The notes below the pieces were generated by a model, which did not search any database, was not told the DNA's origin, and saw nothing but the letters and a program-made list of their open reading frames with translations. A DNA stretch of 64,000 bases, from NCBI RefSeq assembly GCF_044647545.1, contig NZ_CP172818.1; one strand, given 5' to 3'. Numbering within the stretch: position 1 is the stretch's first letter; each line of letters starts with the position of its first letter. Below, piece after piece: positions 39,535 to 49,749 of the stretch. The translations under genes were made by a program, and so were the position numbers. This DNA is from Escherichia coli. Lineage in GTDB: Bacteria > Pseudomonadota > Gammaproteobacteria > Enterobacterales > Enterobacteriaceae.

Positions 39535-39561
39535 TTATCGGCAAGGAAGGGGGAAACTTTA
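39535..39561 (-). promoter_or_regulatory. Sigma-28 (FliA) class 3 promoter for the tar-tap-cheRBYZ operon
   Basis: Minus strand reads TAAAGTTT, 11-nt spacer, GCCGATAA, matching the sigma-28 consensus, about 30 nt upstream of the tar ATG. Confidence 0.8.
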
Positions 39562-40171: not shown

Positions 40172-43063
<2,892 letters not shown>

Positions 43064-43067
<4 letters not shown>

Positions 43068-43951
43068 GCTTCCTCGGTTGTCGTCTGTTGTTGCGGATTT
43101 TTCACCGCACGCACATGCTCTTCCAGTTCAATAAACGACGGACGTTCGCTGGAATAGAGCGTTTTGCGACCAAACTCAACGGCGATAGGCGGTGCGTAAC
43201 CGTTCAGATTAGATAGCAGTGTGACTTTGACGCACTGCATCATTTTGCTGGTTTCGGCGCTTTTCTGACGTAAAACACTCGCTAATGGGGAAATAAATCC
43301 GTAAGCCAATAAAATGCCGAGGAAAGTCCCCACCATCGCATGTGCGATAAGCGCCCCCAGCTCGGCGGCAGGACGATCGGCTGAACCTAACGCGTGAACG
43401 ACCCCCATTACAGCCGCGACAATACCAAACGCCGGAAGTGAGTCCCCGACCAACGCCAGACTGTTCGCCGGGACTTCTGCCTCGCTTTCGTGCGTCTCAA
43501 TCTCTTCATCCATCAGAGCTTCGATTTCGAAGGTGTTCATGTGACCGCTGATAATCAGGCGCAGATAATCGACGATAAATTCAAGCATGACGCTATCCGC
43601 AAGGATGCGTGGGTAGCTGGCGAAGATCTCGCTCTCACGGGGATTTTCAATATCGCGTTCCAGCGAAAACATCCCCATCTGCCGCGATTTCGCCATCAAC
43701 CGATAAAGCAGAGCCAGCAGATCCATATACATTGCTTTGGTGTATTTGGAGCGACGAAACAGCAACGGCAGCGCCTTCAGCGTGCCTTTAATCGCTTTGC
43801 CATTATTGCCGACGATAAACGACCCAATCCCTGCACCGGCAATAATCACCAGTTCAGCGGGTTGATAGAGTGCTCCAAGGCTTCCACCGGTCATCAAATA
43901 ACCGCCGAAAACTGTACCGAGAACAACCAGGTAACCTAATAAGATAAGCAC
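43064..43951 (-). CDS. motA: Flagellar stator proton-channel protein MotA, 295 aa, GTG start
   Basis: [23 protein letters not shown]...; first codon is GTG; stop overlaps the motB start. Confidence 0.95.
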
Positions 43952-44008
43952 GACATCATCCTTCCACTGTTGACCATGACAGGATGTTCAGTCGTCAGGC
44001 GTTAACGC

Positions 44009-44041
44009 GCGATTGGGGCAAAAAAAAGCAGCGGTACGTCG
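44009..44041 (-). terminator. Hairpin plus T8 between flhC and motA (flhDC terminator or attenuator)
   Basis: gcagcggtaacgacgtaccgctgc followed by tttttttt on the minus strand, about 37 nt after the flhC stop. Confidence 0.6.
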
Positions 44042-44077
44042 TTACCGCTGCTGGAATGTTGCGCCACACCGTATAAG

Positions 44078-44656
44078 TTAAACAGCCTGTACTCTCTGTT
44101 CATCCAGCAGTTGTGGGATAATATCGGCAGGATTCTGGGAAAGTTTACGTCTTTTTACTGCCCGGGATGGCGGCTGACATAAGCTGCAGGCAAAGCTGCC
44201 AACAGGCTGGTGAGCGTGGGTAATAAAATTGCCGCCGCAGCAGTTGCAGCTGGAAAGTTGCAGTAATCCACTTTCAACAAACCGTACCAATGTCCAGGCA
44301 CGGGTTAATGCCAGCAGCGGTCCGTCTTCTGCTTGCGGGCACTGTTCAAGGTATAAACGGTAGGCTTTGATCACCGCATCGACGCCATTACACAAGCCGG
44401 TTTTCAGTAAAAACTGCCATGCGTTACAGAACATTGAAGCATGAACGTTTTGTTCCCAGGTCATAAACCAGTCGGTTGAGAATGGCAGCATGCCTTTCGG
44501 CGGTGGGCTTCCGCGTAGTTCTTTATAGAGTTTTATCAGGCGTCCGCGACTTAACTGTGTTTCGCTTTCCAGCATCTGCAAACGAGCGCCCAGGGTGATC
44601 AATTCCATTGCCAGCTGAATATCCCGCGCTTCCTGAACAATGCTTTTTTCACTCAT
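44078..44656 (-). CDS. flhC: Flagellar master regulator subunit FlhC, 192 aa
   Basis: [33 protein letters not shown]...; zinc-binding Cys cluster. Confidence 0.97.
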
Positions 44657-44658
44657 GA

Positions 44659-45009
44659 TCAGGCCCTTTTCTTGCGCAGCGCTTCTTCAGGCTGATTAAC
44701 ATCATTCAGCAAGCGTGTTGAGAGCATGATGCCGGTATGAATTTGCTGGAGATCGTCAACGCGGGAATCTTGCGTCAATTGAGTAATCGTCTGGTGGCTG
44801 TCAAAACGGAAGTGACAAACCAGTTGATTGGTTTCTGCCAGCTTAACCATTTGCGGAAGAGTCAGTGCCGCTAACGTTGTCGCCATTTCTTCATTTATGC
44901 CGAGACGAAACATAGCGGACGCTTTGTCCTGAACAATCAGACGCTGTGCAAGTAGTAAATATGACAAGTTGATGTCATAAATGTGTTTCAGCAACTCGGA
45001 GGTATGCAT
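44659..45009 (-). CDS. flhD: Flagellar master regulator subunit FlhD, 116 aa (119 aa if the upstream MGI Met is used)
   Basis: [38 protein letters not shown]... Confidence 0.95.
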
Positions 45010-45270
45010 TATTCCCACCCAGAATAACCAACTTTATTTTTATGCGGTCTCACCGCACCCCGTGATGTCGCCGGGAAGCCCCGGTAAAAAATAATTAGCA
45101 TTAGAATAGTTGCGATAAGCTGCAATAAGCAGAACCACCTTTTTGGTTTAATAAGTCCTTACAAATAGAAAGGGGTCTTTACACTTATCTAAGATTTTTC
45201 CTAAATCGACGCAACTGTACTCGTCACTACACGCACATACAACGGAGGGGGGCTGCGATTTTCAATAATG

Positions 45271-45286
45271 TGTGATGCAGATCACA
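45271..45286. promoter_or_regulatory. CRP-binding site in the flhDC promoter
   Basis: Perfect palindrome TGTGATGCAGATCACA about 260 nt upstream of the flhD ATG, matching the CRP half-sites TGTGA/TCACA. Confidence 0.75.
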
Positions 45287-45961
45287 CAAAACACTCAATT
45301 ACTTAAATTTAACACAAATCATCAACAAAAATACAACTTCCATTCAATCTCTTTATTAATACACCTTCCACCATCCACATATAAAACACATTCGAATTCT
45401 TACACCACCCTCAACTAAAGGACACAAAAACAAACCAACACCTCAAAAACACCACATACACTAAACAAGCAGCATCACCCATAAATGTATAAGTCATACT
45501 TTTGTTTTGGGTGTATTTCAATCTGTTAAAAAGTTTTTCGCAACGCTAGCAAGCAAAAATGAAACAGGAATAATCGAAATGGGATGTTGCGCACAGTTAA
45601 AATAACTCACCGTAAATAATCATCTGCTATAAATAATCACTTTCATGCAATACCCGATAAGCTATTTTTAAACAGACACTTACCGCACAACAAACTAATT
45701 AAATACAAAGAAAGGCAACAATCAACCTAATGTTAATAAAATGTTTTGCATATATTAACCACTTGTTTAATATGGGAAATCAGTACATTATTTTCTTATA
45801 AATACAGTTGAAATCATATGATCACCGAGAGTGATTGATTAATTATCTTTACTAATGACCAGACTAATATTTACCTGTTTTACTGAGTTGGGATTGCGTC
45901 GTTTCTCCATTAGGAGTAAAGCTTTAATGTCACCTGCAGTTCACAGAATAAGGAACAGGTT

Positions 45962-46390
45962 ATGAGCTATAGCAATATTCTTGTCGCCGTTGCGGTTACA
46001 CCGGAAAGTCAGCAACTGCTGGCAAAAGCGGTATCTATCGCCAGGCCAGTAAAGGGACACATCAGTTTAATTACTCTCGCTTCCGACCCGGAAATGTACA
46101 ATCAATTAGCCGCGCCGATGCTTGAAGATTTACGCAGCGTGATGCAGGAAGAAACGCAAAGCTTTCTTGATAAGTTAATTCAGGATGCGGGGTATCCCGT
46201 TGACGAGACGTTTATTGCCTACGGTGAGTTAAGCGAACATATTCTGGAGGTTTGTCGCAAACATCATTTCGATTTGGTGATTTGCGGTAATCACAATCAC
46301 AGTTTCTTTTCGCGAGCATCCTGCTCGGCGAAAAGAGTGATTGCCTCTAGTGAGGTCGATGTGCTGTTAGTTCCACTTACGGGAGATTAA
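45962..46390 (+). CDS. uspC: Universal stress protein C, 142 aa
   Basis: MSYSNILVAVAVTPESQQLLAKAVSIARP... UspA-family fold. Confidence 0.92.
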   Translation: MSYSNILVAVAVTPESQQLLAKAVSIARPVKGHISLITLASDPEMYNQLAAPMLEDLRSVMQEETQSFLDKLIQDAGYPVDETFIAYGELSEHILEVCRKHHFDLVICGNHNHSFFSRASCSAKRVIASSEVDVLLVPLTGD

Positions 46391-46396
46391 CCGCTC

Positions 46397-49749
<3,353 letters not shown>

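Follow-up and report, generated by a model that had tools for sequence, protein, structure and literature searches.

In Escherichia coli K-12, the small RNA MotR derives from the motA 5′ UTR and is transcribed from a σ28 promoter located within flhC, which also drives motAB-cheAW (Melamed et al. 2023, eLife 12:RP87151, PMC10578931). Its synthesis is fliA-dependent, a band of ~95 nt co-immunoprecipitates with Hfq, and longer bands were ascribed to ‘readthrough of the MotR terminator’ (PMC10578931). MotR was found in RIL-seq chimeras, pairs within the rpsJ and fliC coding sequences, and raises S10 and flagella number (PMC10578931). FliX, FlgO and UhpU resemble MotR in being σ28-dependent, UTR-derived and Hfq-binding and in affecting flagella synthesis; however, they originate from 3′ UTRs, FliX and FlgO by processing, whereas MotR is a primary 5′-UTR transcript that arises by premature termination (PMC10578931). 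Termination within a leader also separates a short RNA from the full mRNA, as in MotR, in the case of GraL (greA leader, PMC2836576) and of Listeria Rli51 (mpl 5′ UTR, PMC11394854), and Rli51 is described as both cis-attenuating and trans-acting. MotR shows no sequence relationship to either of them and, in contrast to both, has its promoter and its first 37 nt inside the upstream gene and a terminator that very probably also ends the upstream operon.

The locus described here is part of a 64-kb window of E. coli DNA, by which we mean the whole stretch analysed (64,000 nt), where the flagellar genes flhDC-motAB-cheAW are encoded on the minus strand and motA is followed downstream by motB and then by cheA. 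With K-12 MotR (b4828) it shares genomic position, synteny, σ28 promoter, transcription start, the length of 95 nt, terminator and U8 tract, as well as 93 of the 95 nucleotides. The two substitutions are U instead of G at nt 40 (44075) and U instead of A at nt 49 (44066), the second of which falls into the seed. The hairpin and the U8 tract in the flhC-motA spacer are the 3′ end of this published sRNA, i.e. a feature that is already known and not new. The elements of the locus are as follows, in window positions:

44659..45018, minus strand: flhD, from the ORF list
44078..44656, minus strand: flhC, from the ORF list
44121..44147, minus strand: σ28 (FliA) promoter of motR and motAB-cheAW inside the flhC coding sequence, TAAACTTT-N11-GCCGATAT, from a consensus scan
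44020..44114, minus strand: MotR sRNA of 95 nt, running from the A at 44114 (+1) to the last U at 44020, projected from b4828
44078..44114, minus strand: overlap of MotR nt 1-37 with flhC, comprising the last 11 sense codons, the TAA stop and one base of the preceding codon
44061..44072, minus strand: MotR seed, nt 43-54 (ACGGUGUGGCGC), from the rpsJ duplex and the M1 primer SM467
44027..44052, minus strand: terminator stem-loop with 5′ arm 44052..44043, loop 44042..44037 and 3′ arm 44036..44027
44020..44027, minus strand: U8 tract at which transcription terminates, expected to serve as the 3′ tail for Hfq binding, from the sequence
43952..44019, minus strand: distal part of the motA 5′ UTR, present in readthrough transcripts only, from the ORF coordinates (total 5′ UTR 163 nt)
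43064..43951, minus strand: motA with a GTG start, from the ORF list

The spacer between flhC and motA extends from 43952 to 44077 and is exactly 126 nt long, in agreement with the outer coordinates of the initial annotation. Several E. coli chromosomes contain the surrounding 1 kb, used as a query, with 100% identity; of 5426 complete E. coli genomes, 5375 match at least 80% of this query, and 5376 match MotR itself at the same coverage. The names flhC, motA and flhD are those annotated beneath the 100%-identical genome matches. Between motA and flhC, the RefSeq record of MG1655 (NC_000913.3) lists the ncRNA motR (b4828, ‘small RNA MotR’) at 1977208..1977302 on the minus strand, overlapping flhC by 37 nt, and this entry could be aligned without gaps onto 44020..44114 of the window. 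The initial annotation had anticipated a short motA-leader RNA with its end at the hairpin and had mentioned reports of a small RNA of the motA 5′ UTR. Both expectations are borne out by MotR as described by Melamed et al. 2023 (PMC10578931), the 3′ end of b4828 coinciding with the final T of T8. The placement of this RNA proved correct for its 3′ end at the hairpin but not for its start, which is located 37 nt inside flhC and not in the spacer. The sequence at +1, ACAACTGC, agrees with the cloning primer and with the numbering of the variant MotR*: primer SM001 (ACAACTGCTGG...; in its longer form ACAACTGCTGGATG...) matches the window sequence from 44114 onwards, and the definition of MotR* (TGC at nt 6-8) fits a start at this position. 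Positions 43000..46000 gave no family match in Rfam 15 at E<=1, hence no curated MotR model was available to score against. While motR is annotated in the MG1655 record, flhC alone is annotated at this place among the other E. coli matches listed (H1-H34), and with PGAP-annotated E. coli genomes listed without motR, naive scans will rediscover the feature.

Table 2 of Fitzgerald et al. 2014 reports a FliA ChIP-seq motif for (flhC)motAB-cheAW, FAT score 101, and the promoter TAAACTTT-N11-GCCGATAT is identical both to this motif and to the K-12 promoter sequence.

The spacer hairpin is a canonical intrinsic (Rho-independent) terminator and is highly conserved. On the minus strand, the terminator scan returned a 10-pair stem (6 GC) with a 6-nt loop at 44052..44027, AGCAGCGGTAACGACGTACCGCTGCT followed by TTTTTTT, in which arms and loop read AGCAGCGGTA-ACGACG-TACCGCTGCT ahead of the T run; it represents the strongest terminator-like site within 42000..46000. 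A 41-nt segment containing the hairpin folds with −17.3 kcal/mol compared to −5.6 ± 2.1 kcal/mol in 200 dinucleotide shuffles (z = −5.6), none of which was equally good. The fold of the whole spacer yields a z of only −2.2, the signal being seated in the hairpin itself. The stem begins 25 nt past the flhC stop, and the last U lies 58 nt past this stop and 68 nt ahead of the motA GTG. A hairpin with T8 on the minus strand had been recognized in the initial annotation, and both the terminator scan and the fold statistics attest its presence; its coordinates (44009-44041), however, were about 11 nt off: they take in just the 3′ arm and the T run and then extend 11 nt too far. Likewise, the distances given there, 37 nt from the flhC stop and 58 nt to the motA GTG, have to be corrected to 25 nt (up to the stem) and 68 nt (counted from the final U). 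A terminator on the plus strand, or a bidirectional one, was rejected: in that orientation A8 stands ahead of the hairpin and GGAATGTTG, which has no T run, behind it, and no plus-strand site was returned there by the scan.

The same hairpin very probably also terminates flhDC transcription, a conclusion derived from published RNA-seq data. The normalised expression values of flhC and motA are 320 and 302 in motile MG1655, and 107 and 1 in a ΔfliA strain (Fitzgerald et al. 2014 Table 2). Therefore, transcripts that cover flhC in the absence of σ28 stop before motA, and such a missing continuation from flhC to motA is the prediction of an efficient terminator in the spacer. The role as flhDC terminator, originally assigned on the basis of the position of the hairpin, thus gains support. 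Direct mapping of the flhDC 3′ end was looked for in an E. coli Term-seq paper (PMC7815308), whose main text and supplementary text contain no entry for motA, for flhC or for the coordinate of this site.

Conservation was analysed by a FlhC-based scan with one genome per species, which provided 80 loci from Escherichia to Yersinia. In 79 of them motA is retained 3′ of flhC, mostly with a spacer of 113-135 nt, and the distance from the σ28 promoter to the flhC end is exactly 70 nt in 79/79 usable loci. The hairpin is kept in 67 loci of Enterobacteriaceae and Erwiniaceae in the form UCCAGCAGCGG...CCGCUGCU(6-9), with an outer stem of invariant sequence and a variable apex and loop. When 66 distinct homologues were aligned, 96.2% of the cells were paired, three apical pairs were changed on both sides, the terminator register outscored all slid controls, and the T-run columns were at least 90% conserved. 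In place of the enterobacterial terminator, the spacers of Pectobacterium and Brenneria (L069-L073) contain an unrelated hairpin of 13-16 bp with a U-rich tail, which ends ~95 nt from the conserved σ28 start site; this arrangement suggests an analogous MotR-sized RNA in these genera, as judged from their sequences. The spacers of Serratia, Yersinia and Dickeya carry hairpins but no U tract and no obvious intrinsic terminator, and a MotR-type terminator is unsupported for them. In the locus of Enterobacter cloacae DSM 26481, the FlhC match ends at residue 173 and the frame runs into the spacer; flhC thus appears to be frameshifted or truncated in this genome, whereas promoter and terminator are intact in sequence.

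We are confident that in the motR locus one Rho-independent terminator serves the transcripts of two promoters, combined with an action of MotR in trans. According to this model, FliA/σ28 RNA polymerase would initiate at 44114 on the minus strand from the promoter embedded in the last flhC codons. Part of these untranslated transcripts would halt at the hairpin/U8 element (44052..44020) to form MotR (95 nt), which would bind Hfq through its hairpin and U tail, and the others would read through and produce the motAB-cheAW mRNA with a leader of 163 nt. Transcripts from the class-1 flhDC promoter would stop at the same hairpin, and we infer from the published RNA-seq values that flhDC mRNA and MotR share a common 3′ end. 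MotR would act in trans via nt ~43-54 by pairing within the coding sequences of rpsJ (S10) and fliC, thereby raising S10 and the number of flagella. Initiation, termination with MotR release, readthrough and the trans steps are taken from K-12 experiments performed by others and are applied here because the sequence is nearly identical.

As an addition to this model and not as its replacement, the MotR terminator might operate as a translation-gated attenuator, a possibility which we consider rather unlikely. In the untranslated σ28 transcript, nt 1-12 would pair with nt 60-71 before the 3′ arm of the terminator is made, and this early pairing would delay closure of the lower stem and result in partial readthrough into motAB-cheAW. 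In the flhDC mRNA, ribosomes finishing flhC would cover the 5′ segment, the terminator would fold freely and the stop would be nearly complete. In attenuators of the trp-leader type, mutually exclusive helices compete for the 5′ arm of the terminator, and translation decides between them. MotR would be comparable with them just under the alternative-helix hypothesis and would, unlike the trp leader, lack a leader peptide; the translated segment would instead be the end of flhC, and only in the transcripts of the other promoter. The core of the putative helix consists of two segments:

44103..44110, minus strand: candidate antiterminator strand, MotR nt 5-12 CUGCUGGA, flhC codons Leu-Leu-Asp, complementary to nt 60-67
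44048..44055, minus strand: candidate antiterminator partner, MotR nt 60-67 UCCAGCAG, three flanking nt plus the first five nt of the terminator 5′ arm

The 8-bp complementarity between CUGCUGGA and UCCAGCAG covers five nucleotides of the terminator 5′ arm. In simulated nascent RNAs of 67-82 nt, the helix between nt 5-12 and nt 60-67 is formed with a probability of 0.97, the terminator becomes dominant only from 88 nt on, and the structures with the forced helix and with the terminator are ~3 kcal/mol apart. For 65 of the 67 homologues the helix has a predicted P>0.5 despite a divergent intervening sequence, 99.4% of the cells in its alignment are paired, and the flanking UCC, though not part of the terminator stem, hardly varies. 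One both-sided change (GAU to AAU together with CC to UC, in L054/L076) and one wobble-compatible change (L067) were also detected. However, most of this conservation is uninformative, since five of the eight pairs are invariant and the 5′ strand is held constant by its coding function; moreover, the sole covarying event is common to two related genomes, and the helix is disrupted in E. albertii. When nt 1-59 were dinucleotide-shuffled, the GC-rich arm was also sequestered almost as often as in the native sequence (mean P 0.55 compared to 0.67), and the ΔΔG was as low as the native one in 32 of 500 shuffles (p~0.06). An extension of the alternative helix by the outer pairs A1-U71 and C2-G70 was discarded, these pairs being without covariation and lost in loci with A70.

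An effect of the 5′ segment might be seen in MotR* (nt 6-8 UGC to GAG), in which the helix is predicted to be abolished. This mutant was found ‘by chance’ and is more abundant, the clone containing the native terminator and the whole leader (PMC10578931). Because pZE-MotR spans +1 to the motA GTG, the higher abundance of MotR* could reflect better termination, but it could equally be a matter of stability. Readthrough also appears to be asymmetric when motA in the ΔfliA strain (1, with flhC at 107) is set against motA in the wild type (302; Fitzgerald et al. 2014), and a far lower readthrough of flhDC transcripts would follow if flhC-finishing ribosomes mask nt 5-12. In the literature searched there is no description of an alternative-helix or antiterminator structure of MotR, and its authors favour a protein-mediated antitermination by S10-NusB instead (PMC10578931). 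Altogether, the evidence for a translation-gated antiterminator is suggestive only. If true, such gating would account for a single hairpin being a tight barrier behind the class-1 operon and yet leaky for the class-3 promoter, and for the higher sRNA level of a chance mutant at nt 6-8. A 5′ arm complementary to the transcript’s own 5′ end would provide a simple RNA-based account of promoter-specific readthrough beside the S10-NusB model.

Returning to the model of one terminator for two promoters with a trans-acting MotR, its last element has to be weighed against a purely cis-acting locus, in which the hairpin would be an operon terminator and leader attenuator and the 95-nt RNA of this strain a by-product devoid of trans activity. 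We consider this reading improbable. The relevant data concern the seed. RNAduplex pairs nt 43-54 of K-12 MotR with positions 141-152 of the rpsJ coding sequence over 12 continuous bp (−22.4 kcal/mol), in agreement with the published site at ‘~+150’ (PMC10578931). U49 of the window allele places a U-U mismatch in the middle of this duplex (−18.0 kcal/mol), and the mismatch is generally uncompensated, since 5299 of 5425 genomes carry the identical rpsJ target site. A by-product would also be compatible with the finding that compensatory rpsJ mutations failed to restore MotR binding (PMC10578931). On the other hand, the chromosomal three-base seed mutant motR-M1 of K-12 has fewer flagella and a lower motility at an unchanged MotR level, and MotR is recovered with Hfq and in RIL-seq chimeras (PMC10578931). 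The M1 exchange, G46U47G48 to CAC as read from the mutagenesis primer SM467, lies next to U49; it destroys the calculated rpsJ duplex (−11.2 kcal/mol), whereas the window allele still reaches −18 kcal/mol. Furthermore, the window allele shares its seed form GGUGUGG with Salmonella, Citrobacter and E. albertii, pointing to an ancestral seed that is functional. By this comparison of sequences A49 of K-12 therefore looks derived and the U49 form ancestral. On the basis of the duplex energies, the trans activity of the U49 allele may be weaker than that of K-12 MotR. The exact window allele of MotR occurs in 566 of the 5376 matching E. coli genomes and the exact K-12 allele in 2897. About a tenth of the complete E. 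coli genomes carry the U49 seed variant, which weakens the predicted pairing of the characterised rpsJ interaction and is possibly of specialist interest.

That the 3′ end is cut by RNase from a longer motA leader or flhDC 3′ UTR, or that the hairpin is present by chance, is hardly credible: nothing specific speaks for it except that the σ28-dependent sRNAs FliX and FlgO are processing products (PMC10578931), and it is opposed by the canonical layout, in which a GC-rich 10-bp stem passes directly into U8 and the annotated 3′ end is the final U, by the fold z of −5.6, by the retention in 67 genomes with compensatory changes, and by the situation in Pectobacterium and Brenneria, where an unrelated hairpin and U-rich tail, equally far from the transcription start, have taken its place.

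Downstream of the terminator, in the distal motA leader (43952..43990, minus strand), a CAUCCU element could pair with the motA Shine-Dalgarno sequence AGGAUG and possibly form a sequestering hairpin. Across 28 Enterobacteriaceae, 79% of its cells are paired, which lends weak support, and the two both-sided pair changes both belong to one lineage (L031/L037, AGUCC/GGACU). The sequestering hairpin was not retained as a candidate, given a non-significant single-sequence z of only −0.4 and no call by RNAalifold.

The σ28 consensus scan of the 64-kb window yielded four matches compared to 0.52 expected. Besides the motR promoter, it identified a perfect consensus, TAAAGTTT-N11-GCCGATAA, at 39535..39561 on the minus strand, which is nearly identical to the tar-tap-cheRBYZ motif of Fitzgerald et al. 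2014 and differs from it in one spacer base. A σ28-like match, TGAAATTGCACCAGATCGAGCCGATAA, is located at 47526..47552 on the plus strand, antisense within an otsA-like ORF (46397..47830), and has the same sequence as ‘(otsA)’, a weak FliA ChIP site of the intragenic kind (Fitzgerald et al. 2014 Table 2).
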